This document shows, one piece after another, positions 4,883 to 26,937 of a DNA stretch of 64,000 bases (positions are counted from its first letter, which is position 1; each line of letters starts with the position of its first letter). Source of the stretch: an uncultured Chloroflexia bacterium. GTDB lineage: Bacteria; Chloroflexota; Limnocylindria; Limnocylindrales; CSP1-4. Under the pieces are notes generated by a model. That model ran no database searches. It worked only from the letters and a program-made list of their open reading frames with translations, and had not been told where the DNA came from. The translations under genes were made by a program, and so were the position numbers. The stretch lies in the NCBI GenBank assembly GCA_963746845.1, contig CAVVCZ010000006.1:96001-160000 (forward strand), written 5' to 3'.

Positions 4883-5752
4883 ATGACGTTCGACCCGAAC
4901 GCACAGCTCGATCCCACCCAGGTCACGGACGTCCGCGGACGGTCCGTGGGCCGCGGCGGCGGCCTGGCCGTGGGTGGCGGCGGGCTCGGCCTGATCATCG
5001 TGCTCATCTACACGCTGCTCGGCGGCAACCCGGGCGACCTCCTGAGCTCGGGCGGTGGCGGCGGCACGATCGACACGAACGGCCCGAACAGCTCCGCGCT
5101 CGCTGCATGCACAAGCGGCGCGCAGGCGAACGCGCGCGAGGATTGCCAGATCGTCGGCTACGTCAACAGCATCCAGGCGTTCTGGGCGACCCAGGTGCAG
5201 GGCTACGAGAAGGCCGAGACGATCATCTTCACCGGAGCGGTCTCGACGGGCTGCGGCGACGCCTCATCGGCCACGGGCCCGTTCTACTGCCCGGTCGACA
5301 AGAACGTCTATCTCGATCTCGGCTTCTTCCAGGAGCTCCAGGATCGGTTCGGCGCGAAGGACGCGCCGTTCGCCCGCGCCTACGTGGTCGCCCACGAGTA
5401 CGGGCATCACGTGCAGGACCTGGTCGGCGACCTCGGCTCGGGCAGTGGCGAGACCGGCGCGTCCGGACGATCCGTCCGCACGGAGCTCCAGGCGGACTGC
5501 TACGCGGGCGTGTGGGCCCACAGCGCGAGCTCGACCGGCTTCATCCAGCCCCTGACGCAGGACCAGATCGGGGCGGCCGATGACGCGGCGACGGCCGTCG
5601 GCGACGATCGGATCCAGGCGTCCGTCGGTGGCGGGGTCGACCCCGACAGCTTCACCCACGGGACGTCGGCCCAGCGGGTCCGCTGGTTCACGGCCGGGTA
5701 CGACTCGGGTAACCCGCGCGACTGCGACACGTTCAACGCACAGCAGCTGTAG
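4883..5752 (+). CDS. Neutral zinc metallopeptidase (YpfJ/KPN_02809-like)
   Basis: TGCG..GPFYCP.D, AHEYGHHVQ (HExxH), ELQADCYAG, FTHGTSAQR; N-terminal TM; TACCCT -10 7 nt upstream. Confidence 0.93.
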   Translation: MTFDPNAQLDPTQVTDVRGRSVGRGGGLAVGGGGLGLIIVLIYTLLGGNPGDLLSSGGGGGTIDTNGPNSSALAACTSGAQANAREDCQIVGYVNSIQAFWATQVQGYEKAETIIFTGAVSTGCGDASSATGPFYCPVDKNVYLDLGFFQELQDRFGAKDAPFARAYVVAHEYGHHVQDLVGDLGSGSGETGASGRSVRTELQADCYAGVWAHSASSTGFIQPLTQDQIGAADDAATAVGDDRIQASVGGGVDPDSFTHGTSAQRVRWFTAGYDSGNPRDCDTFNAQQL

Positions 5753-5782
5753 ACGGGCTCGCGCCCCCCGGCGTCCGCCGGG

Positions 5783-6289
5783 CTAGGCGACGGCGCCGGC
5801 GAAGGCGAAGGCGAGGGTTGGTGCCGTGCCGGTCTCGGGCGCCTCGACCGCCTCGGTCGCGCGAGCTGTCGACTCGTCGGTCCGGCGGGTCTCGCCGAAG
5901 GCCGACAGGGCGAGGGCGATCAGGCTGACCTGGAGGGCCCAGACGAGCGCCGAGGCGATGTCGATCGTGCCGAACAGGATCGCCTGCTGCTGAGCGGGCT
6001 CGGCGATCCCGGCGAGCGAGATCGCGACCGCGAGGACGACCAGCCAGAGCGCCGCGCGCCGGCCGCCACGGGTCGGGCGCGCCGCGATCGTGGCGAGGAG
6101 GCCGACGAAGACCAGGGCGATGAGCGATGGGGAGATCGCGGTGCCATGGGCCCAGACGTCGGCCGAGATGGAGGACACGTCGCCGTGGCCACCGAACGTG
6201 TACGGCAGGTGCTGGGCGACGCCGATCTTCGTCAGGGCGAGGCCGATGGCGATGACGATCGTGGCGATCGCGGCGGGTCGGGTGCGCAT
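5783..6289 (-). CDS. Hypothetical membrane protein (~4 TM)
   Basis: GGAGG RBS, hydrophobic helices, GC3-rich codon usage. Confidence 0.7.
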   Translation of the reverse strand: MRTRPAAIATIVIAIGLALTKIGVAQHLPYTFGGHGDVSSISADVWAHGTAISPSLIALVFVGLLATIAARPTRGGRRAALWLVVLAVAISLAGIAEPAQQQAILFGTIDIASALVWALQVSLIALALSAFGETRRTDESTARATEAVEAPETGTAPTLAFAFAGAVA

Positions 6290-6618
6290 GATGCCTCCGG
6301 GAGTGATCGAGGATCGAACTGCCGGGATCGTGGCGACCGGCACGCCGCGCGACGACCGCCTCTCGTCGCCGCCGATGATGGACATCCGTCGCATCGCCCG
6401 CGACCGGCGGGCACCTCGGCCCTTCTCGTTCGTGTGCCTGAGCCTCACGTCGACGCGCGGCCTTGGCATGCGTGTGCCATGCACATGCGCCGTGACGTCA
6501 CGCGGCCCCGCCAAGCACGAGCTCCGAGGCGATGTGCCTGCGGCAACGTTCTCGGGTGTGTCACGCCCACGCGCGCGAACCCGAGACCGGATCGGAGCGC
6601 GCAGGGCGGCGGCGGCGC

Positions 6619-13514: not shown

Positions 13515-14054
13515 CGCTCGTGCCTCCTCTCCGCCGGAACGCCGGGCATGGGGCTCGGCGACGGTGGTGTGGGCCGCCGACGGCAGGAGGTGCGCGCGGT
13601 CGAACGCGAGCGCGGTCGCGTGGACGCGTGTGCTGGAGGCGGCCGGGTGAGCACCGACCGGAGGCGGGGCAGACAAGGCGGGCTCGACGGGTGAGCATGC
13701 TCGTCAGCCGGTGACGACAGGATCCTGCCGTGGGAGGCGGCGGTCTTCGGTTGTGCCTGTCTGTCGGGGGTGGATGCAGCCTGGGGGCCTGTCGGCAGTA
13801 TGCCAGCCGGGTCAAATCAGCGCGTCCCCCGAAGGCACCATGCCCGACCCGCCGAAGGGACGGGTTCCCACGCTCAGCCGGTGACCCGGTGCGCCGGAGG
13901 CCGGTGCCTGGACGCTCCACGGCGGCCGATCGGCTATGCTCCGCGCGATCCACGCTCGCACCGCGTCGTTTGCACGACGTCAAGGGAGGCGAGCGGGAGA
14001 CGACCCAGATCCGCCGACCGCGCAACCCCCCGTGCGCGGCGGCCCAGGAGCCAG

Positions 14055-15323
14055 ATGACCTTCGATACGCTCGGCCTGTCGGCCGATCTCATCCGGACCG
14101 TGGCCGAAGAGGGCTACCTCGAGCCCACCCCGGTCCAGGCCAAGGCGATCCCCCTCGTCCTCGAGGGACGCGACGTCCTCGCAGCCGCCCAGACCGGCAC
14201 CGGCAAGACGGCGGCCTTCACGCTGCCGATCCTCGACCGCCTCCGGCCCCACGCCAACACATCGTTCTCGCCGGCCCGCCATCCGGTCCGCGCGCTGATC
14301 CTCGTGCCGACGCGCGAGTTGGCGATGCAGGTCGACGAGAGCGTCCGGACGTACGGCCGGACGGTGCCGCTCCGCTCGACGGTCGTCTATGGCGGGATGC
14401 CGATGGATCCCCAGATCAAGGCCCTCCGCGACGGCGTCGAGATCCTCGTCGCGACGCCCGGCCGGCTGCTCGATCTCGTCGGCCAGCGGGTCGCGAACCT
14501 CGGCCAGGTCGAGGTCCTCGTCCTCGACGAGGCGGACCGGATGCTCGACATGGGCTTCCTGCCGGACATCCAGCGGATCATCGCCCTCCTCCCCGCCCGT
14601 CGCCAGAACCTGATGTTCTCGGCGACCTTCTCGGACGAGATCCGGCGGCTGTCGCGGACGATCCTCAACAACCCCGACGAGGTCGAGGTGGCTCCCCGCA
14701 ACACGACGGTCGAGGCGATCCGCCAGATCGTCTATCCGGTCGATCGCGACCGGAAGGAGGAGCTGCTCGCGCACCTGATCCGGAAGCACGATCTCCGGCA
14801 GGTCCTCGTCTTCACCCGGACGAAGATCGGGGCGACCCGGCTCGCGACCTGGCTCGACCGCCAGGGGCTGAACGCGGTGGCGATCCACAGCGATCGCTCG
14901 CAGCCGGAGCGGACCCGGGCGCTGGAGGAGTTCAAGACCGGCGAGATCCGGGTCCTCGTCGCGACCGACGTCGCCGCGCGCGGTCTCGACATCGAGGACC
15001 TGCCGCACGTCGTGAACTTCGAGCTGCCGTGGAACCCGCAGGACTACATCCACCGGATCGGGCGGACGGGCCGGGCGGGCGCGACGGGCGAGGCGATCAG
15101 CCTCGTCTGCATCGACGAGGCAGACCTGCTCCGGGGCGTCCAGCGCCTCCTCCGCCAGGCGATCCCCTGGACCGTCGAGGACGGCTTCGTCCCGGACCGG
15201 AACGTCGAGCCGCGACCGCTCCGCGGCGGGATGGACGGCGGGCCTCGCGGCGCTCCGCGCGGCGCCAGCCGGCCCGCGCATCACCCGCACCGGAAGCCGG
15301 TCCAGTACCGGGCGGGCGCCTAG
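14055..15323 (+). CDS. DEAD-box RNA helicase (RhlE-like)
   Basis: Q motif [44 protein letters not shown]; AGGAG RBS. Confidence 0.97.
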
Positions 15324-15369: not shown

Positions 15370-15996
15370 TCAGACCGGCGGACCGGTGGCCGGGAGGACC
15401 GGACGCTCCTCCGGTTCCTCGTCCGCCTCGGCTGCCGCCGGATCGACGGGCGGGGCCTCGGGCCTCGCGGGGATGAACATCAGGAGCGGCTCCTCGACCT
15501 TGGCCGAGATCATCTCGGCACCGGGGAAGAAGAACCCGAGCATCAGGTCCGCCTCGACCCGATCGACGACGTAGCGGTTGACGAGGGCCATCGGCCGCGG
15601 CAGGCCGGTCCCCTCCTCCGCGATCAGGCTGATCGTCACGTCGCGCAGCTGGACGAACTCACCGGTCGGACGGGCAAGGGCCCGGCCGGGGTCGAAGCCG
15701 GGCATCGTCGCCAGCTGGCCGAGGACGCGATACGGACCGACGTCCAGCACGATGTCGTGCCACTGGGCGTGGACGGGCAGATCCTCGGCTTCCTCGGCGG
15801 TCGCGACATGGATGTCGTCGGGCGGGAGGATCAGCTCCGCGCTCTGGCCGGCCGGCGACTCGTCGATCGGGTGCCAGGTCGCGTCCTCGATGCGCACGCT
15901 TCCGCCCGCCTCGAGCGCGTCGCGCAAGTGCGTGGCGCGCGCGACGACGCCAACGGCGATCCCCCCGGCGGTATAGATCTCGACCCGGATCGGCAT
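15370..15996 (-). CDS. Hypothetical protein (possible tandem DUF6812-like beta domains)
   Basis: Typical codon usage; two beta-rich halves (IRVEIYTAGG and IVLDVGPYRVLG). Confidence 0.65.
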   Translation of the reverse strand: MPIRVEIYTAGGIAVGVVARATHLRDALEAGGSVRIEDATWHPIDESPAGQSAELILPPDDIHVATAEEAEDLPVHAQWHDIVLDVGPYRVLGQLATMPGFDPGRALARPTGEFVQLRDVTISLIAEEGTGLPRPMALVNRYVVDRVEADLMLGFFFPGAEMISAKVEEPLLMFIPARPEAPPVDPAAAEADEEPEERPVLPATGPPV

Positions 15997-16156
15997 GCCT
16001 GCTCCCGAGCAGGACCCGAGTCTGCGCCACGGGCGCAAGGGGGTCGCATGACCCGTCGGTACCGACGGTGCGACCCCCGTTGGTCCTGTGGTCAGCCGAT
16101 CGCGGGCTGGGCCCGGCCGGCCCCGATGGCGCCCTCGGTCCGGCGGTGACGAGCCG

Positions 16157-17599: not shown

Positions 17600-17676
17600 G
17601 TCGGTGCGACGATACCGTGGCCGTCGTCCGGACCGCGTCCGACCGGCCCGTCCGCTCTCAGACCTCGAGGTGTCGA

Positions 17677-18042
17677 TTGATCCGCTCCCTCCGCTTCCTC
17701 GGTGTCCGCACCGGCGCGTTCGATGCGACCGTGGCCCTGTATCGGGACGCGCTCGCCCTCCAGCCCGTGCTGGAGCGGCGCGGCGCGGCGTGGTTCCGCG
17801 CCGCGGACGGCGCCTCGATCCACGTCTACGACACCTCGGACGAGGACCACGACTTCTTCGACCACGGCCCGGTGGTCGGCTTCGAGGTCGACGACTTCGA
17901 AGCCGCCCGTGCGGCGCTCCTGGTGGCCGGGGTCTCATTCATCGGGGAGCCGCAGCGGGACGGCGGCGTCGCGTGGAACCACTACCGCGGCCCCGACGGC
18001 AACGTCTACGAGATCATCGGGCCGGATCGGAGCGGGACGTGA
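17677..18042 (+). CDS. VOC/glyoxalase family protein
   Basis: GAGGTG RBS with TTG start; VGFEVDDFEAA and RGPDGNVYEI motifs. Confidence 0.88.
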   Translation: MIRSLRFLGVRTGAFDATVALYRDALALQPVLERRGAAWFRAADGASIHVYDTSDEDHDFFDHGPVVGFEVDDFEAARAALLVAGVSFIGEPQRDGGVAWNHYRGPDGNVYEIIGPDRSGT

Positions 18043-19280
18043 CGAGCGTGCCGGGCGCCGCGGACCTCCTTCGGGACGTCGGGCTGCTCGCGGACGGTCC
18101 CGTCGTGTGGGGGCGGCCGGTGGGTGCCCGGCGGGGCGGGATCTTCCTCGTCGAGCTGCCCGAGCCGCGGCCGACCGCGCCGATCGGGCTGACGCTCGTC
18201 GGCAAGTGGCTCGAGCGGGTGCCGGACCTCCGCCTGGACGGATCCCGCCCGAGCTCGCGCGCGCTGGCCGCGCGTCTGGCGGCGTTCTGGCTGCCGTCAG
18301 CGCGGGTGCTGTACGTCGGCGCGACGGACGGCTCGATCGGCGGGCGGGTGGAGGCGATCCGGGCGACCGTCCTCGGCGATCAACGGCCACACAGTGGCGG
18401 GCACTGGCTCCACACGCTGAACGGGCTCGACAAGGCTCGGGTCTGGTGGGCACCGACCGACGCGGCCGAGGAGTACGAGGACGCGGTCCTCGATGCGTTC
18501 GCGGCGACGGTCCCGGCCGCGGAGCGGGCCGCGCTGCCGGACCCGGTGACGGTGCTGCCGTTCGCGAACCTCCGGACCGCGATGGGTGTCCGGAAGGCGA
18601 CCGGGCTGTCGAACAGCCTGCTGGCGGCCGAGACGGAGCGTCCGACGGTGATCCGACGGGTCGTCGAGCTGCCACCGGGCGCCGCCGAGGGAGCGAGCGG
18701 GATCCCGCCGACCCGGGCCGCCGGCGGGACGGTGCGCCGGGCGCCGCGACCGACGACTCGGGTCGCCACCGGGGCGACCGCGACGGGCACGACCGTCGCG
18801 GCCCGCCCCGCCGCCGAGACGACCTGGATCTCGGCGGACGGTCTCGAACGCCTGCGAGCCGAGCACGCAGAGCTCGTCGGCGTCCGCCGCCCGGAGGTCA
18901 TCGCCCGGATCAAGGCCGCCAAGGAGCTCGGCGACCTGAAGGAGAACGCCGACTACGCCGCGGCGCGCGAGGAGCAGTCGTTCCTGGAGGGCCGCATCGC
19001 GACGATTGAAGGGCTGCTGCGGGCCGCGGTCGTGATCGAGGAACCGGGCGCCGACGGGCGCATCCGCGTCGGATCGAGCGCGTCGGTCGAGGAGATCGGC
19101 GGCGACGGGGAGACCGTCGTGTACCGGATCGTCGGGTCGACCGAGGCGAATCCGGCGGCCGGCCGGATCTCGAACGCGTCACCGGTGGGACGAGCGCTCA
19201 TCGGACGGAGCGTCGGCGACGTCGTCACGGTGACGACGCCCCGCGGGGCGGTCGAGTACCGGATCGTCGCGGTCGAATAG
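18039..19280 (+). CDS. greA: Transcription elongation factor GreA with a long N-terminal GIY-YIG-like domain
   Basis: C-terminal GreA (AKELGDLKENADYAAAREEQ; IVGSTEANP..ISNASPVGRALIG); N-terminal GIF..LYVGAT..R..E..PFAN; GTGA overlap with the VOC stop. Confidence 0.88.
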   Translation: MTSVPGAADLLRDVGLLADGPVVWGRPVGARRGGIFLVELPEPRPTAPIGLTLVGKWLERVPDLRLDGSRPSSRALAARLAAFWLPSARVLYVGATDGSIGGRVEAIRATVLGDQRPHSGGHWLHTLNGLDKARVWWAPTDAAEEYEDAVLDAFAATVPAAERAALPDPVTVLPFANLRTAMGVRKATGLSNSLLAAETERPTVIRRVVELPPGAAEGASGIPPTRAAGGTVRRAPRPTTRVATGATATGTTVAARPAAETTWISADGLERLRAEHAELVGVRRPEVIARIKAAKELGDLKENADYAAAREEQSFLEGRIATIEGLLRAAVVIEEPGADGRIRVGSSASVEEIGGDGETVVYRIVGSTEANPAAGRISNASPVGRALIGRSVGDVVTVTTPRGAVEYRIVAVE

Positions 19281-19492: not shown

Positions 19493-20158
19493 TCAGTCCC
19501 TGGCCGGTTCGACCAGCTTGTGCTCGACCGCCCAGAGGGCGGCCTGGGTCCGCGACGCGAGCCCGAGCTTGCCGAGGATGTTCGAGACGTAGGTCCGGGC
19601 GGTCCGCTCGGTGATGAACAGCGCGGAGCCGATCTCCTTGTTGCTCATCCCCTGGCCGAGCAGGCTCATGACGTCCTTCTCGCGGTCGGTCAGCGGCTCG
19701 ACGGGCTCGTCCTCGCCGGTCTTCTTCGCGCGCATCCGCTGGGCGAGGAGCCGGGCGACAGCGGGGTCGAGGTGGACCTCGCCCGCATAGGCAGCCCGGA
19801 CGGCGGCGGCGACCTCTTCGGCCTCGGCGTCCTTCAGGACGTAGCCGGAGGCGCCGGCCTCGAGGGCGGCGGTGACCTTCTCTTCCTCGATGAACGAGGT
19901 CATCGTGACGATCTCGATCTCGGGCCGCTCGGCCTTGATCCGGCCGATCGCGGTGACGCCGTCCATGTTCGGCATCAGGAGGTCCATCAGGACGACGTCC
20001 GGCTCGAGCCGGCGGGCCATCGCCACGCCCTCGCTGCCGTCCGCGGCCTCGCCGACGACGGTGATGTCGTCCTGCAGGTCGAAGAACACCCGCAGCCCCA
20101 TCCGGACGACGGAATGGTCGTCGACGATGAGCACGCGGATGCTGGTGTCGTCGGACAC
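19493..20158 (-). CDS. NarL/LuxR family response regulator
   Basis: VLIVDDH..PDVVLMD..GYVLKD receiver; LTDREKDV..SNKEIG..YVSNILGKLG HTH; GGAGG RBS. Confidence 0.96.
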   Translation of the reverse strand: MSDDTSIRVLIVDDHSVVRMGLRVFFDLQDDITVVGEAADGSEGVAMARRLEPDVVLMDLLMPNMDGVTAIGRIKAERPEIEIVTMTSFIEEEKVTAALEAGASGYVLKDAEAEEVAAAVRAAYAGEVHLDPAVARLLAQRMRAKKTGEDEPVEPLTDREKDVMSLLGQGMSNKEIGSALFITERTARTYVSNILGKLGLASRTQAALWAVEHKLVEPARD

Positions 20159-20247
20159 GGTTCCTCCGAGGGCAGCCGGCCGGGAGTGACGGGACGCGGT
20201 GGCGGTCGGCACGGTCGAGTCTAGCAAGGTACGGATCTCCTCTCGGC

Positions 20248-20637
20248 TCACGCGACCGACCGACCCGAGGTCGAGACCACGGCGTCGATCAGCTCGTGCG
20301 GCCGGAATGTCTTTCGAGCGTAGGCATCGGCGCCGCTGGCCAGGTCCGCGGTATCGGACCAGTTGAGGACGAGGACACGGGCGGTCGGAGCGACCACCCG
20401 GATCTTCGCGATCAAGGCGGCACCGGCGTCGACACCCGGCAGGCGGGGATCGACGACGACGACATCGGGTTCGGAGTCCTTGGCGAGGCGAAGGGCGGCG
20501 TCGGCGGTGCCGGCACTGCCCACGACGAGACAGCGTTGACCGATCCGGAGCAAGCCGGCGAGGCTTTCGCGTACGCGATCGTCGGGATCGACGAGAAGCA
20601 CGCGGAGCGGAGCCGGCGCTGCAGCAGAGTCGGTCAT
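20248..20637 (-). CDS. Single-domain response regulator receiver
   Basis: VLLVDPD..PDVVVVDPRLP..GADAYARK. Confidence 0.85.
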   Translation of the reverse strand: MTDSAAAPAPLRVLLVDPDDRVRESLAGLLRIGQRCLVVGSAGTADAALRLAKDSEPDVVVVDPRLPGVDAGAALIAKIRVVAPTARVLVLNWSDTADLASGADAYARKTFRPHELIDAVVSTSGRSVA

Positions 20638-20701: not shown

Positions 20702-23700
20702 TCATTCCGCCGATGCGCGGATCGAGGCGACCGTCTCGCCCGACGGGGCGGACTCGTCGGCGGCGCGCGCGATCGCCTCCGGTGGGACGGTCACGACGAT
20801 CGTCGTCCCGTCGCCGATCCGGGAGTCGACGTCGAACCGGGCTCCGATCTTCTCGGCCCGGGCGCGCATCCCCGCGAGCCCCAGGTGGCCGTCCGGCACG
20901 GACGCGGCGTCGAAGCCCTTGCCGTCGTCGCGGATCCGGAGGACGACCGCGCCGCCCTTGCGCCCCACGGTCAGCTCGACCTGCCGGGCGCCGGCGTGCT
21001 TGACGACGTTGTGGAGCGCCTCCTGGGAGATCCGGTACAGGACCTCCTCGAGCGCGAGCGGCAACCGGTCGCCGAGGTCGCTCGTCACGACGATCGGCAG
21101 CCCGATCCGGCCCTGGAGGGCCGACGCGTGGGTCCGGAGGGCCAGCAGCAGGCCGTCGTTCTCGAGGTTGCCGGGGCGCAGCTCGAAGATCAGCGCCCGC
21201 ATCTCGGCGAGGGCCTCACGCTGGAGATCGCGGAGGGAGCCCAGCTTCTCCTTGGCGGCGGCCGGATCGCGGTCCACGAGCAGCTCCGTGCTCCGCGTGA
21301 TCAGGGTCATGCTGAACAGGGCCTGGGTGACCGAGTCGTGGAGCTCTCGGGCGAGGTGGGCGCGCTCCTGGCTCGACGCGAGCTCGCCCGCCTGGCGCAT
21401 CAGGTCGCGCTCGAGACGCTCGCGCTCGGTGATGTCGCGGGTCGCGCCGTGGATGCCGGTGAAGACACCGTCGACGGTCGCGCCGATCGAGCTGACCTCG
21501 ACCGCGACGGTCCCGCCGTCCTTGCGCAACAGCTCGAGCTTCACGACCTGGCGGGCCGACGGCTCGGCGACCAGCTGGGTCCAGCGGTCCACGGCAACCT
21601 CGAGCGACGCGGGATCGATGATCCGCGAGAAGTGCTGGCCGACCAGCTCGGTCTGGAGGTAGCCGGTCATCGTCTCGATCGTCTCGGACAGGAACGTGAA
21701 CACGCCCTGGTCGTCCGTGGAGAAGACGACGTCCGGGGCGTTCTCGACGAGGAACCGGTAGCGCTCCTCGGATTCGCGCAGCTCGCGCTCGAGGCGCGTC
21801 TGCTCGCTCATGTCGCGGACGCTCCCGTTCGCGCCCCCGAAGTGGCCGGTCTCGTCGCGGGTCGCGAACGCGATGAACTCGGTCGGGATCGGGTGACCGT
21901 CCTTGTGGAGCAGGTTCACCCGGCCACGGAGCTCCCGCCCGCCGCTGCCGTCGTCGGCGGCCAGCCCGACCGTCCAGTCGATCTCCGCGACCTCGCGCGA
22001 GGACTCGTGGACGAGGGCCCCGAAGTGCTTGCCGAGGAGCTCGTCGGCACCCCAGCCGGTCAGGCGCCGGCTCGTCGAGTCGGAGACGAACGTGAACCGG
22101 GCGTCGGCGTCGATCGACCAGACGAGGTCCGGCGAGTTCTGGACGAGGTTGCGGTAGCGCGCCTCGGACTCGCCGAGGAGCTCGTACAGGTTGGCGTTGG
22201 TCAGGGCGATCGCGGCCTGGTCGGCCAGGCCCTGGAGGAGGTCCAGCTCGTCGGGCAGGATCTCCCGCGGCCGGGCGTACGAGACCGCGAGCGTGCCGAT
22301 CACCTCGCCCGCGGGTGCCCGGAGTGGCGCCGCGGCGAGGGCCCGGAGCTGAAGCCGCTCGGCCGCGAGCTCGTCGTCGGGCTCGTGCGGGATCCGGGGG
22401 TCGTTCGCGTAGTCGTACGTCCAGACCGGCTGGACCTCGAGGGCAGCCAGGCCGTTGATCCCACCGCCGAGCGGGAACTGCATGCCCTTCAGCCAGTCCT
22501 CGGTGTCGCTGTCCATGCCGCCCGCGACGATGACCGGCACGAGGAAGGTGCCGTCGTCGGACATCCGGGTGAGGTGGGCGCCGTCGGACCCCAGCAGCCG
22601 GCGCGACTCCTCGACGACCCGGGCCAGGAGCTCGCCTGGATCGCCGAGCGAGGTGATCCGCGAGGCGATGTCCCGGAGCGATCGCTCGGTTTCCGCGCGC
22701 GCCGCGAGCTCGCGCTGCGAGCGCTCCAGCTCGTCGATCAGCCGGGCATTGAGCATCGCGATCGCCGCCTGGTCTGCCAGGGCGCCAAGGAGGTTCGCCT
22801 CGTCCGCCCCGAACGTGCCGGGCGTCGACGAGAAGACCGCGAGCGTGCCGAGCGCACCGCGCTCGGACACGAGCGGCGCGATCGCGATCGCCCGAAGCCC
22901 GATCTCCTTCGCGACCGCCGCGCCGTCGGCATCGGGCGCGAAGCGCGGGTCGCCGAGGTAGTCGATCGTGAAGAGGGGCGCTCGCCCGGCGATCGTCCGG
23001 CGGACGATGTCCTCGCCGACGCGCGTCGTCTCCCAGCGCCGGCTGCGCTCCTCGTCGAGGCCGCCGACGTAGCCCATCGCGATCGTTCCACTGATCGGGT
23101 CGAGCAGGTCGATGATCGCCCCGTCCGAGCCGAGCAGGCGGGCGGCCTCGTCGGCGACGTGCTGGAGCAGCTCGGGCGTGTCACGGATCGCGGTGATCCG
23201 GGCCGCGATCTCACGCAGGGAGCGTTCGGCCTCGGCGCGCCGGCTGATGTCCCGGCGCGACTGGTTCAGCTCCTCGATGAGGCGCGTGTTCGTGATCGCG
23301 ATCGCGGCCTGGGCGGCGAGCGAACGGATGACGCCGGCATCATCCGCGTCGAACGCCCCGGAGGCGCGGGAGTAGACCTCGAGCGCTCCGAGCGGACCGG
23401 CTTCCCCGCTGATCGGGGCGATGATCATCGAGCGGAAGCCGGTCACCCCGAAGAACCGGTCGTTGACCGCGGACGGCGGGAAGTGCAGCCCGAGATCGTC
23501 GCTGGCGGTCACCAGCCGGTTCTCGGCCACCGCGACGCCGGTCGCCCCGACGCCGACCGGGATCGTCAGCTCGGCGATCTCCTCCGGCGTGAACAGCGCG
23601 CCGATGCCCGAGTCGTAGGTCCAGCGCAGCACTCCGGCGCCCGGGTCGAGGAGGTCGAGCACGGACCCGTCCGCGCCCACGAGCCGCTGCGCGGCGTCGA

Positions 23701-26686
23701 CGACCTGCTGGAGAAGCGATCGCGGGTCGCGGGTCGCGGTGATCTCGGCGGCGATCTCACGGAGCGACTGCTCCGCGTCCGCGCGCCGCGCGAGCTCCGT
23801 CGACGACCGGTCGAGCTCCTCGATCAGGCGGGCGTTCTGGATCGCGATCGCCGCCTGGTCGGCGAGTCCCTGGAGCAGGTCCGCCTGGGCCTCCGTGTAC
23901 TGGTCGGGCTGCACGCTGCTGACCGAGATCGACCCGAGCGACCCGGATTCGCCGCGGAGGGGCGCCGCGAGGACGGACCGGAAGCCGGTCGCCCGGACGA
24001 GCGCATCGGACCGTGCGACGTGCTCGAACCGGGTGTCGACGAGGTAGTCGCCCGACCGGAAGGCCTCGCCCGTGGCAACGGTGCGGCCGGCGATCCCCTC
24101 CCCCAACCGGAACTCGCGGTCGAACCCCTCCTCGCGGGTCCGGATCGCGTCCTCGCCGGAGGCGTAGGCCCAGCGCAGCGTCACCCCGTCGTCGTCGAGC
24201 ATGTCGATCCGGGCCGACGTCGAGTCGAGGAGCCGCCGCGCCTCGTCGACGGTCTGCTGGAGGATCGCATCGGTGTCACGGAGGGCAGAGATGTTCGCCG
24301 CGATCTCGCGGACGGCACGCTCGGCGTCGGCGCGACGGGAGATCTCGACCTTCGAGCGGCCGAGCTCGTCGATCAGGCGGGCGTTCTGGATCGCGACGAC
24401 GACCTGGTCCGCGAAGGCCGCCATCAGCTTGGCGTCCTCGTCGTCGAAGGCGTCGCGCCGGGTGGTGGCGACCTTCAGGACGCCGAGGAGCGTGGACTCC
24501 GACAGGAGCGGCGTCGCGACGACGGACTTGATCCCGACCTTCCTGACGTAGGCATCCGACTCGGGGACGTGCAGGATCCGGGCGTCATCGAGGTAGTCGC
24601 CGGTCACGACGACGCCACGCTCGACGATCGCCGCCGCGTTGATCCCCATCTCGGCCGCGGCCCCCTCGTGCGCGCCCGGGAGATCCAGCCCGAACTCCCC
24701 CTCGCCGGAGGCGGTCGTCCAGCGGATCAGGCCGGTCGCCGGGTCGACGATGTCGAGCTGGGAGCGCTCGGCCGACAGGAGCCGCCGGGCCGCGTCCGTG
24801 ACCTGCTGCAGGAGCTCCGACGGGTCGCGGATCGCCGTGATCGTCGTGGCGATCTCGCGCAGCTCCTGCTCCGCGCGGGCGCGCCGGCGGATCTCCTCCC
24901 CCGAGCGCTCGAGAGCCTCGATCAGGCGCGAGTTGCGGATCGCGATCGCGGCCTGGTGGGCGAGCGCCTCGACGAGCGCGACCTGCTCGGGCTCGAACGC
25001 GGCGATCTCGCTCGCGCCGACCTGGAGCACGCCGAGCATGGCGTCCTCGACGATCAGCGGGGTGATGACCAGGGACCGGACGCCGTCCTGCCCGACGGCC
25101 GCGTCCAGCTCGGGGTCGTGGGTGAACGACAGGTCCGCGAAGTAGTCGTCGACGACCACCGTCCTCCGCTGGTCGATGGCCTGGCCCGACGCCCCGTAGT
25201 GGTACGGCTCGCCGACCTCGTCGACGGCGGCCCCGCCGATGTGGCGCCCGGCCCCGAGGAACGTGTAGCCGACGCGGCCCGCGCCGCGGCCGATCAGGTC
25301 GATCCGGACACGTTCGGCGTGGAGCAGCCGGGCGGTCTCGTCGACAACGTCCTGGAGGAGGTCCGACGGGTCGCGGATCGCGGTGATCCGGGCCGCGATC
25401 TCGCGGAGGGCGCGCTCCTCGTCGGCCCGCTGCCGCTCGGCGGCCCGCGAAGCCGCCAGCGCCTCGATCAGGCGGGCGTTGGTCATCGCGATCGCGGCCT
25501 GTCCGGCCAGCGCCTCGAGCAGGCCGGCATCGGCCTCGTTGAACGCGTCGACCTCGCCGGTGTAGACGGTCAGCGTCCCGAGCGGACCGCGGTCGCCGAC
25601 GAGCGGCACCGCCACCACGGAGCGGATCTGGTACCGACGGACATGCTCGTCCGGCGCGGAGGCGTGCTCGAAGCGGTCGTCGGCCAGATAGTCGCCGGTG
25701 ACGACGGGCCGGAGCTCGCGCACCGCCCGGCCGGAGAGCCCCTCGCCGGCCTTCGCTTCGCCCGTCCCGCCGATCGGGCCCATCCCGGGCCGCCGGCCCG
25801 TCGTGGCGTCGTAGGCCCAGTACAGGGCGCCATCGCGCTCGCTCAACAGGTCGATCCGGGCGCCGTCGGCGCCCAGCAGGGCGGCCGCCTCGTCGACGGC
25901 GAGCTGGAGGACCTCCGCGGGGTCGCGCAGGGCGGTGATCCGGGCGGCGATCTCGCGCAGCGCCCGCTCCGTCTCGGCGCGCCGCTCGACCTCGGCCCGC
26001 GAGCGGTCCAGCTGGTCGATCAGCTCGGCGTTGGCGATGGCAAGCGTCGCGTGGTCCGCGAGGGCCTTGACCAGGGCGATCTCGGCTTCGCCGTAGGCGC
26101 CGACCCGCGGCGTGTAGGTGCCCATCGCCCCGAAGACACGGTCGCCGGCGATCATCGGCGCGACGATGAACGAGCGGATCCCGAGCGTCCGGACGAGACG
26201 GTCCGCGCCCTCGAAGTGGACGAAGGACGGGTCGTTCGGGTAGTCGTCGCTGATGACGGTCCGGCGTTCGGCGACGGCTCGCCCGAACATCCCGGCGCCC
26301 GGCTCGACACGCAGCTGGCGGACCCACCGGCGCCGCCGGTCGTCGGTGATCCCCGCGTCGTCGGCGAACTGGAGGATGCCCGTCGCGGGGTCGAGGAGAT
26401 ACGCGAGCGCGCCGGCAGAGTGCAGGAGCCGGGCGGCCTCCTCCAGGGCGTGGTGGAGGATCGCCTGGTTCTCGGGAGTGACCAGCCCGGCCGCGTCGGA
26501 CGAGAGGTCGAGCCCGTCGCCGCCGTGCCCGTCGAGGTCGGCGACGGTCGGATCGGCCTCGATCGGGGTCGTCGTCGAGGGTTTCTTCGCCTTCGGCTTC
26601 GTCGGCTCGGGCTTCGCCGGCTTCGGAGGCTGAGTCGGCTTCGCATCCCGGCGCCCTGGCGCGCGACGCGGACGGGTGGTGGCCAC
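20702..26686 (-). CDS. Giant cytoplasmic sensor histidine kinase (8 GAF + 2 PAS + HisKA_3 + HATPase)
   Basis: Eight repeats running L..(v)deAarLL...A.(Q/H)..(I/V)A(I/M/L).N; two PAS domains (NSPDLVW, NAPDVVF); ERAHLARELHDSVTQ, QEALHNVVKHA, DDGKGF, HLGLAGMRARA; leaderless TATCCT 6 nt before GTG. Confidence 0.93.
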   Translation of the reverse strand: MATTRPRRAPGRRDAKPTQPPKPAKPEPTKPKAKKPSTTTPIEADPTVADLDGHGGDGLDLSSDAAGLVTPENQAILHHALEEAARLLHSAGALAYLLDPATGILQFADDAGITDDRRRRWVRQLRVEPGAGMFGRAVAERRTVISDDYPNDPSFVHFEGADRLVRTLGIRSFIVAPMIAGDRVFGAMGTYTPRVGAYGEAEIALVKALADHATLAIANAELIDQLDRSRAEVERRAETERALREIAARITALRDPAEVLQLAVDEAAALLGADGARIDLLSERDGALYWAYDATTGRRPGMGPIGGTGEAKAGEGLSGRAVRELRPVVTGDYLADDRFEHASAPDEHVRRYQIRSVVAVPLVGDRGPLGTLTVYTGEVDAFNEADAGLLEALAGQAAIAMTNARLIEALAASRAAERQRADEERALREIAARITAIRDPSDLLQDVVDETARLLHAERVRIDLIGRGAGRVGYTFLGAGRHIGGAAVDEVGEPYHYGASGQAIDQRRTVVVDDYFADLSFTHDPELDAAVGQDGVRSLVITPLIVEDAMLGVLQVGASEIAAFEPEQVALVEALAHQAAIAIRNSRLIEALERSGEEIRRRARAEQELREIATTITAIRDPSELLQQVTDAARRLLSAERSQLDIVDPATGLIRWTTASGEGEFGLDLPGAHEGAAAEMGINAAAIVERGVVVTGDYLDDARILHVPESDAYVRKVGIKSVVATPLLSESTLLGVLKVATTRRDAFDDEDAKLMAAFADQVVVAIQNARLIDELGRSKVEISRRADAERAVREIAANISALRDTDAILQQTVDEARRLLDSTSARIDMLDDDGVTLRWAYASGEDAIRTREEGFDREFRLGEGIAGRTVATGEAFRSGDYLVDTRFEHVARSDALVRATGFRSVLAAPLRGESGSLGSISVSSVQPDQYTEAQADLLQGLADQAAIAIQNARLIEELDRSSTELARRADAEQSLREIAAEITATRDPRSLLQQVVDAAQRLVGADGSVLDLLDPGAGVLRWTYDSGIGALFTPEEIAELTIPVGVGATGVAVAENRLVTASDDLGLHFPPSAVNDRFFGVTGFRSMIIAPISGEAGPLGALEVYSRASGAFDADDAGVIRSLAAQAAIAITNTRLIEELNQSRRDISRRAEAERSLREIAARITAIRDTPELLQHVADEAARLLGSDGAIIDLLDPISGTIAMGYVGGLDEERSRRWETTRVGEDIVRRTIAGRAPLFTIDYLGDPRFAPDADGAAVAKEIGLRAIAIAPLVSERGALGTLAVFSSTPGTFGADEANLLGALADQAAIAMLNARLIDELERSQRELAARAETERSLRDIASRITSLGDPGELLARVVEESRRLLGSDGAHLTRMSDDGTFLVPVIVAGGMDSDTEDWLKGMQFPLGGGINGLAALEVQPVWTYDYANDPRIPHEPDDELAAERLQLRALAAAPLRAPAGEVIGTLAVSYARPREILPDELDLLQGLADQAAIALTNANLYELLGESEARYRNLVQNSPDLVWSIDADARFTFVSDSTSRRLTGWGADELLGKHFGALVHESSREVAEIDWTVGLAADDGSGGRELRGRVNLLHKDGHPIPTEFIAFATRDETGHFGGANGSVRDMSEQTRLERELRESEERYRFLVENAPDVVFSTDDQGVFTFLSETIETMTGYLQTELVGQHFSRIIDPASLEVAVDRWTQLVAEPSARQVVKLELLRKDGGTVAVEVSSIGATVDGVFTGIHGATRDITERERLERDLMRQAGELASSQERAHLARELHDSVTQALFSMTLITRSTELLVDRDPAAAKEKLGSLRDLQREALAEMRALIFELRPGNLENDGLLLALRTHASALQGRIGLPIVVTSDLGDRLPLALEEVLYRISQEALHNVVKHAGARQVELTVGRKGGAVVLRIRDDGKGFDAASVPDGHLGLAGMRARAEKIGARFDVDSRIGDGTTIVVTVPPEAIARAADESAPSGETVASIRASAE

Positions 26687-26937
26687 GACCTGAGGATATC
26701 CGACCGTTTTCGCTTCCCGCGATCGACCGTGGGCGGGCCCGTCTACGTCATTCGTCGCGTTCCGAGGTCGTCTGGTCGCCGAGCGGAGACGGCCCATCGA
26801 CGGTCGGCGGCCGCGGCCAACGTCACGCCGCCTTGTCGACGGCAGCCGACGGCCGGTGCCACGACCCGGGATCGACGATGCGACCCGACGCCGACGAACC
26901 GGCGACACCCCCTCCACCACAGAGGTACCGCTCCGCC

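Follow-up and report, generated by a model that had tools for sequence, protein, structure and literature searches.

What is a folded, nuclease-type domain doing in front of a GreA? Gre factors are textbook single-purpose proteins and ordinary GreA is a stand-alone chain of about 160 amino acids (aa), whereas the gene considered here encodes 413 aa, with some 260 extra residues at the N-terminus. It lies in a 64,000-nucleotide stretch of DNA (the window) from an uncultured Chloroflexia bacterium of the order Limnocylindrales (assembly GCA_963746845.1, contig CAVVCZ010000006.1, positions 96,001 to 160,000), whose genome is 92% complete in 12 contigs. The initial annotation of the window described GreA joined to a GIY-YIG-like endonuclease domain and proposed a nuclease tethered to stalled RNA polymerase. 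Our analysis indicates a conserved fusion of a complete GreA with a member of an unannotated family of predicted GIY-YIG fold. On balance, sequence comparison favours a second GreA paralogue whose N-terminal domain (N-domain), held on a disordered tether, would bind nucleic-acid phosphate and metal, its canonical hydrolysis having been abolished or much reduced. The gene and its parts are as follows.

18039..19280, + strand: whole fusion gene, 413 aa, GTG start, stop codon at 19278-19280
18039..18623, + strand: N-terminal domain, residues 1-195, GIY-YIG fold according to the predicted model, fold search and profile comparison
18624..18815, + strand: linker, residues 196-259 (~65 aa), rich in Pro, Ala, Thr, Gly and Arg, predicted to be disordered (predicted local distance difference test score, pLDDT, about 42-54)
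18816..19277, + strand: GreA moiety, residues 260-413, with a coiled-coil N-terminal domain, an acidic tip (D299/E302) and a globular C-terminal domain

Spurious long frames arise in high-GC DNA, and the window has a GC content of 72%; the coding signal of the fusion gene was therefore checked. The 413-aa frame has no internal stop, as first reported, and the GC content at codon position 3 is 0.87-0.97 in every 90-nucleotide block of 18030-19280, position 2 being the lowest. The frame is open upstream as far as 16947, and the signal shifts just 5' of 18030, where a gene of the VOC family ends in another frame. The GTG start (18039-18041) overlaps the TGA stop of the VOC gene (18040-18042) and is preceded by GGAG 6 nucleotides upstream, which makes the translational coupling proposed at the outset plausible. 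Homologues start within about 10 residues of the same point as the window protein.

By sequence, the C-terminal part is a complete GreA with its acidic tip intact, in agreement with the initial annotation. Both Gre domains exceed their Pfam cut-offs (PF03449 at residues 263-332, 84.6 bits against 24.5; PF01272 at residues 339-413, 80.4 bits against 26.9), as do two NCBIfam models, TIGR01462 (154.6 bits against 139) and the GreA equivalog NF001263 (157.2 bits against 145). Residues 260-413 align end to end with Escherichia coli GreA (1grj; aligned across residues 266-413, E 2e-30), whose tip, GDLKENAEY, lies opposite GDLKENADY. All 42 aligned fused sequences have D299 and E302, the acidic tip residues, which are D41 and E44 in E. 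coli GreA. In two further NCBIfam families, NF004969 ('transcript cleavage factor/unknown domain fusion protein') and NF011309, a Gre module also ends a much longer protein; these models cover only the Gre part here (E 9e-14 and 1.3e-20), far below their cut-offs, and in the NCBIfam model scan, the one comparison made, their N-terminal parts show no match to the window N-domain.

Comparison of homologues indicates that the fusion is real, a conserved architecture in a single open reading frame (ORF). The best 120 listed full-length homologues, drawn from JGI, ENA, NCBI and Logan assemblies, are 399-462 aa long and carry both Gre domains; those among them that bear a name are called 'transcription elongation factor GreA' and come mostly from metagenome-assembled genomes (MAGs) of Candidatus Limnocylindrales. 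Public annotation hides the fusion architecture behind the plain name 'GreA'. In a phylum sample of 401 Chloroflexota genomes, the N-domain occurs in all 23 sampled genomes of the organism's own family, in none of four from a sister family of small genomes and in one of 16 from another family of the class, where the copy has a different tail; a distant family gave only weak partial matches (three of 25 genomes). By this sampling the fusion belongs to a single family and does not span the class. At eight of the 11 loci fetched from this sample the N-domain and GreA share one frame. From a species-level genome collection 80 N-domain loci were kept. GreA-fused loci number 22, all of them in Chloroflexota, and 36 are stand-alone, in at least nine phyla; the rest comprise 18 with other C-terminal tails, three split loci and one with GreA in another frame. 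Conservation of the fusion, which the initial annotation had left to be checked, is evident from the family genomes and the species-level loci alike, and the orthologues do not show two separate genes: the domains share a frame in the 22 loci and in the eight just mentioned. In none of the 80 loci did a Rosetta-stone test place a separate greA beside a stand-alone N-domain gene.

All 45 fused rows of a quick maximum-likelihood tree, built from 137 N-domains, belong to one 54-row set (Shimodaira-Hasegawa-like approximate likelihood ratio, SH-aLRT, 99), which also holds Limnocylindrales tail variants and probable fragments. Whole-word searches for GreA together with GIY-YIG, with or without 'fusion', returned none of 8.1 million PMC and 0.36 million bioRxiv texts, subscription-only papers lying outside their coverage. 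The fusion is thus a new domain architecture of a known factor, absent from the PMC and bioRxiv literature searched.

Whether the fusion is the only greA of its genome was a question raised at the outset, and the answer is no. A canonical, stand-alone greA is located on contig 4 (176.9 bits) and shares 49% identity with the Gre part of the fusion. Of 41 family genomes, 35 have at least two greA matches, typically as one short frame and one frame of at least 390 aa. The fusion is a lineage-specific second GreA paralogue.

Residues 1-260 have no match in Pfam, NCBIfam or PDB sequences by phmmer and profile searches, and the N-domain matches nothing in PHROGs or PADLOC. An exhaustive HMMER search with residues 1-205 gathered 817 representatives (50% identity clustering) at E <= 0.001. 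A model of the domain built from 83 homologues (pLDDT 97; predicted template modelling score, pTM, 0.91) comprises strand 1 at residues 34-39 (GIFLVE), a two-helix insert at 51-81, strand 2 at 90-96 (VLYVGAT), a helix bearing the Arg at 100-109, strand 3 at 134-139 and a helix bearing the Glu at 143-157. The GIY and YIG strands are 55 residues apart in this model, the two-helix insertion that separates them amounting to 50 residues.

A structure-based search, as advised in the initial annotation, points to the GIY-YIG fold proposed there. With VIA-align, an exhaustive search of 48,161 chains returned 14 chains at Z >= 2, and the top seven are all GIY-YIG nucleases (Z 7.0 to 3.8): T4 EndoII (2wsh; Z 7.0, 107 residues, 2.8 Å), the UvrC N-domain (1ycz; Z 6.1, root-mean-square deviation 2.4 Å, 81 residues), the N-domain of GRXS16 (Z 6.0), I-TevI (5.7), Eco29kI (4.7), PD-T4-3 (3.9) and Hpy188I (3.8). 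These Z values are middling alone; their weight lies in the exclusive GIY-YIG ranking. Foldseek against BFVD gave nothing at E <= 0.001, the best matches being an uncharacterised phage protein (E 0.006) and then a GIY-YIG protein (E 0.07); among the fold searches a clear ranking came from VIA-align only. In an independent test, hhalign compared a profile of 31 family members with one built from the UvrC N-domains of this and related genomes, and matched the two over 64 columns (probability 92%, E 6e-7), pairing Y92 with the YIG Tyr, R103 with the Arg and E147 with the Glu. Weak matches to GIY_YIG_2 occur in six of the 31 members and weak GIY-YIG Pfam matches in four; no Pfam GIY-YIG model rises above its gathering score, relatives reaching only E 0.003-0.06. 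The named ESM-Atlas neighbours of the N-domain are GIY-YIG clusters only. The model and the profile comparison together place the N-domain in an unannotated family with a GIY-YIG fold.

The comparison with UvrC and Cho offered at first holds for the fold: the N-terminal domain of these proteins is built alike, and its YIG Tyr, Arg and Glu align. It does not extend to descent, since the relatives of the window domain are free-standing genes, some with mobile elements. UvrC and Cho possess UvrB-binding and C-terminal endonuclease/HhH regions, whereas the window protein lacks these and matches no UvrC or Cho model; the genome encodes its own uvrC elsewhere, as a 621-aa frame on contig 4. Relative to UvrC, the window N-domain has the two-helix insert between the GIY and YIG strands, and a Phe at the GIY Tyr. 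The best structural matches, EndoII (2wsh), I-TevI (1ln0), Eco29kI (3mx4) and Hpy188I (3oqg), are free-standing or modular endonucleases. The family is modular, combining a nuclease domain, a flexible linker and a variable C-terminal targeting domain. In the window protein an RNA polymerase factor takes the place of a DNA-binding domain as targeting partner, and by comparison with these enzymes the catalytic Tyr set of the fused clade is degraded. A nuclease domain with a variable partner is the usual modularity of GIY-YIG enzymes.

Some of the stand-alone proteins, which are about 200 aa long, are encoded between the large terminase gene and the portal gene of prophages, at 5920-6609, 5977-6612 and 5989-6609 of their loci (L036, L037 and L038, respectively). 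This interval is a typical position of free-standing homing endonucleases. Elsewhere, stand-alone members neighbour an integrase (L039), a WYL regulator with a large helicase/restriction endonuclease (REase) gene (L075) or a gene of the UDG family (L112). A tblastn search of 50,697 phage records with a prophage-borne stand-alone member gave one weak partial match, so that the description 'phage-borne' depends on three related prophage loci.

The linker between the domains, described at first as rich in Pro, Thr and Ala, fits that description (Gly and Arg are also abundant) and is the least conserved part of the protein. Across 42 fused sequences, pairwise identity averages 0.58 in the N-domain and 0.35 in the linker, against 0.65 and 0.54 in the two GreA domains; the similar values of N-domain and GreA suggest that the N-domain is under selection about as strong as that on GreA. 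The full-length model (pTM 0.54) shows two rigid domains with no fixed mutual orientation. A Gly-Gly-Thr-x-Arg-Arg patch is conserved at residues 229-234. It forms part of a longer conserved stretch, PPGxAEGAxG...AAGGTxRRAPRP, set amid variable sequence at 18690-18760 (residues about 213-240). A similar patch is present in Limnocylindrales paralogues that lack GreA, and it would therefore belong to the N-domain side.

Whether the domain could cut depends on its active site. Residues were counted in 160 GreA-fused and 64 stand-alone sequences, and UvrC numbering was obtained by aligning the genome's own UvrC to that of Thermotoga maritima (1ycz) and combining this with the hhalign match. The positions at issue are these.

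18144..18146, + strand: F36, at the position of the 'GIY' Tyr (T. maritima UvrC Y19 by motif)
18153-18155, + strand: E39 of the acidic cluster
18312..18320, + strand: Y92-V93-G94, the 'YIG' motif, Y92 matching UvrC Y29 (hhalign)
18345..18347, + strand: R103, the helix Arg, matching UvrC R39 (hhalign)
18468..18482, + strand: E144-E145-Y146-E147-D148, in which E147 matches the metal-binding Glu, UvrC E76 (hhalign)
18567..18569, + strand: N177 in LPFAN, candidate equivalent of UvrC N88 (from the motif and the fold-alignment range only)

The hhalign match fell short of the GIY strand because the two-helix insert separates the GIY and YIG strands. It also stopped before N177, which is within the range covered by the 1ycz fold alignment (residues 23-178 of the model, 4-89 of the chain).

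Position 36 is Tyr in all 64 stand-alone sequences, whereas the fused sequences have Phe in 135 of 160, Tyr in 23, Leu in one and Val in one; on the quick N-domain tree the Phe state must have changed from 2 to 5 times. The strand-1 motif is PGVY in the stand-alone relatives, as in UvrC, and GGIF in the window protein. The adjacent pair of tyrosines after the Arg has likewise gone: position 107 is Tyr or Phe in 60/64 stand-alone sequences and Ile, Leu, Met or Phe, never Tyr, in the fused ones, and position 108 is Tyr in 55/64 against only 8/160. Positions 92 (Tyr in 63/64 stand-alone; Tyr in 115/160 and Phe in 44/160 fused) and 118 (His in 64/64; His in 121/160 and Tyr in 27/160) have changed less. 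R103 (64/64 stand-alone, 158/160 fused), E147 (62/64, 154/160) and N177 (64/64, 154/160) have been kept. Four acidic positions that vary in the stand-alone proteins are near-invariant in the 160 fused ones, E39 in 160, E144 in 154, E145 in 158 and D148 in 158. The window protein itself has F36, Y92, R103, I107, R108, H118, E147 and N177. The hallmarks listed in the initial annotation (F36, Y92/G94, R103, E147 and N177) are thus present, in conserved columns, with the qualification that the GIY position holds a Phe.

The consequences of such a change can be judged from studied enzymes. According to PMC3045582, the GIY Tyr is the proposed general base and the YIG Tyr contacts the scissile phosphate, both tyrosines are required, and protons are shuttled by a nearby Tyr or His. 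Eco29kI Y49F is named as an inactive variant in the PDB title of 3nic. Every active-site mutant of CMoRE, Tyr-to-Phe and Tyr-to-Ala substitutions included, is without cleavage in vitro (PMC12923530). CMoRE/PD-T4-3 (PDB 9u75) resembles the window protein in joining a GIY-YIG domain through a flexible linker to a second domain. It also has acidic residues close to its active site, for which a part in autoinhibition has been proposed; these belong to a lid loop, whereas those of the window protein are on the Glu helix. CMoRE differs further in being a defence enzyme that keeps all its tyrosines and whose C-terminal domain senses modified cytosine, whereas the window protein has no PADLOC match.

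Three changes thus distinguish the N-domain of the window protein and most of its clade: the general-base Tyr has become Phe, the adjacent Tyr pair is lost and an invariant acidic cluster is gained. The Arg, metal-binding Glu and Asn are kept in the window protein. Since the general base is lost while the residues that contact phosphate and metal are retained, the domain most likely binds rather than cuts. The claim of a nuclease made at the outset therefore stands as to fold and is weakened as to cutting, the general base being absent here and in most fused homologues.

Like ordinary GreA, the Gre moiety would dock in the secondary channel of RNA polymerase, and docking would keep the N-domain within tether reach of DNA or RNA at a paused or backtracked elongation complex. 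In the geometry of published Gre-polymerase structures the N-terminus of the Gre factor lies outside the secondary channel, so that a tethered domain could be tolerated. The N-domain would then serve as an anchor or sensor rather than a free-running nuclease, and would concentrate the Gre factor on particular transcription complexes or position it there.

Several points weigh against this account. The mechanism is drawn from homology, and F36 is the putative equivalent of the GIY Tyr by motif, strand-1 position and fold-alignment ranges rather than by coordinates. Foldseek against the PDB gave nothing at E <= 0.001, its best non-spurious matches being the GIY-YIG enzymes Eco29kI (E 0.39) and Hpy188I. 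A minority of fused homologues, 23 of 160, keep Tyr36 together with Y92, R103, H118, E147 and N177, and the architecture may thus have arisen, and may in some lineages still work, as an active nuclease. The retained Arg/Glu/Asn triad and the added carboxylates could amount to altered but real catalysis. The Phe mutant of CMoRE at the position structurally equivalent to the GIY Tyr also kept more anti-phage activity in vivo than the Ala mutant (PMC12923530).

These considerations lend some substance to the reading of the initial annotation, with its possible role in transcription-coupled repair or R-loop processing: an active nickase tethered to RNA polymerase, which would cut DNA or an R-loop near a stalled or backtracked polymerase and provide repair or clearance independent of Mfd, a carboxylate of the acidic cluster or His118 taking the place of the Tyr. 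We judge it rather unlikely. The GIY-YIG fold, the retention of Arg, Glu and Asn in 154-158 of 160 fused sequences, an N-domain as conserved as GreA, the subclade of 23 with its GIY Tyr, stand-alone relatives that combine the full catalytic set with contexts typical of mobile endonucleases, and an RhlE-like RNA helicase gene upstream in 17 of 22 fused loci can all be cited for it. They are to be set against the Phe at the GIY position in this protein and in 135 of 160, the loss of the Tyr pair in all fused sequences and the inactivity in vitro of Tyr-to-Phe variants of two enzymes (the title of 3nic; PMC12923530); moreover, the helicase synteny comes from one order of related genomes, which are not independent. 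A more elaborate version, which we consider distinctly improbable, has a remodelled, carboxylate-rich GIY-YIG site delivered to backtracked polymerase and incising DNA, the RNA:DNA hybrid of an R-loop or extruded RNA, perhaps with the RhlE-like helicase, by a route without Mfd or UvrABC; the Tyr36- and Phe36-type clades would then be its fast and gated versions.

We give little credence to a regulatory Gre paralogue without any nucleic-acid role, in which the N-domain would be a protein-interaction or autoinhibitory module that tunes occupancy of the secondary channel relative to canonical GreA; its acidic face could, for example, bind the basic patch of the linker or a surface of the polymerase. 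The coexistence of a canonical greA with a Gre part 49% identical, an acidic cluster specific to the fused clade, the conserved basic linker patch and the acidic autoinhibitory element reported for CMoRE (PMC12923530) are in keeping with such a module. A purely protein-binding role would, however, leave the retained phosphate- and metal-contacting Arg, Glu and Asn unexplained, and the full-length model (pTM 0.54) does not dock the N-domain on GreA.

Still less probable is a domesticated mobile or defence endonuclease that uses GreA as its address and cuts foreign DNA, such as that of phages, while the host polymerase transcribes it. The stand-alone relatives in prophages (three loci), beside an integrase (one) and beside a helicase/REase gene (one), and their sporadic spread over at least nine phyla, would suit such an origin. 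The fused gene, by contrast, is vertically conserved in all 23 family genomes within a housekeeping-like neighbourhood, has lost the catalytic Tyr, matches nothing in PADLOC or PHROGs and would have no means of telling foreign from own DNA. Finally, an artefact (an error of assembly or sequencing that joined two separate genes, or non-coding sequence read as a 5' extension of greA) found no support beyond the general occurrence of long spurious frames in high-GC genomes and a frame open to 16947, and it is refuted for practical purposes by the orthologue data, namely the best 120 listed homologues from four sources of assemblies and the one-frame fusions in 22 species-level and eight of 11 phylum-sample loci, to which the codon-position GC signal along the whole ORF and an N-domain conserved at 58% identity may be added.

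A parallel in concept is offered by Mfd (TRCF) and other repair couplers that bind the polymerase, factors that bring DNA-processing capacity to stalled RNA polymerase. Mfd is a translocase that recruits UvrA; it is without nuclease, uses a different site on the polymerase and has no sequence relation to the fusion. If the N-domain does act on nucleic acid at stalled polymerase, the fusion would physically connect transcript rescue with the processing of DNA or RNA in a new way, and would do so in a lineage of uncultured soil Chloroflexota that is abundant. The stand-alone proteins with their full set of residues, the fused subclade with Tyr36 and the Phe36 majority form a natural contrast for the study of GIY-YIG catalysis and of the domestication of mobile endonucleases, all fused sequences carrying the new acidic cluster. 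The 817 representatives define an unannotated GIY-YIG family with several alternative C-terminal partners.

Other family members end in a C-terminal tail of about 90 aa, of two unrelated kinds. The first, also about 90 aa, has the pattern QRVT..D...G.IRIP...WDPR..ERSGV and occurs chiefly in Actinomycetota, while Chloroflexota, Myxococcota and Pseudomonadota contribute one locus each (loci L053, L062, L063, L066, L069, L081, L082, L097, L100, L103, L104 and L107; proteins P0225, P0249, P0253, P0256 and P0257). This tail (QRVT...GQIRIP...WDPR) has no match in Pfam or among PDB sequences; it may resemble a B3/AbrB-type barrel. The second, of about 80 aa, has the pattern ..LQRLAC...LL+.GKIEG..Q....W.I and belongs to Limnocylindrales paralogues (L060, L064, L065, L071, L012 and L013). 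Genomes G205 and G253 carry this form alongside the GreA-fused form, and in G253 (G253:C1:673295-673813) a second copy of the N-domain has an in-frame TGA, which may come from a sequencing error or mean that the copy is a pseudogene.

Upstream of the fusion gene, the neighbourhood includes the following two genes.

13770..15323, + strand: RhlE-like DEAD-box RNA helicase (586 bits against NF007882, under the cut-off of 743)
17617..18042, + strand: VOC/glyoxalase-family gene, its stop overlapping the fusion start, a linkage shared only with the closest relative, L092

The helicase gene is on the same strand as the fusion in the 17 loci noted above and is also found upstream in two additional loci, which have a truncated or frameshifted fusion gene; in the window, a gene of unknown function, a beta-lactamase-fold gene and the VOC gene lie between the two. 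As the genomes are all kin, this synteny is a lead rather than evidence of shared function. Linkage to the VOC gene was considered as a conserved feature and rejected, an upstream VOC gene being detected by phmmer in only one of the 22 fused loci. In a Steroidobacteraceae MAG (L042) a VOC/glyoxalase gene at 5355-5753 lies directly 5' of a stand-alone N-domain gene at 6001-6609, probably by coincidence.

On the minus strand, a 222-aa ORF at 15370-16038 has no Pfam or NCBIfam match and is conserved in L092 (E 7e-59). Downstream of the fusion, a 2072-aa frame at 20702-26920 (- strand) shows, by eye, repeated sensor units and a histidine-kinase-like C-terminus. It adjoins a lone receiver-domain gene at 20248-20637 (- strand) and a LuxR-type response regulator at 19493-20227 (- strand), and the whole block is conserved in L092 and L096.

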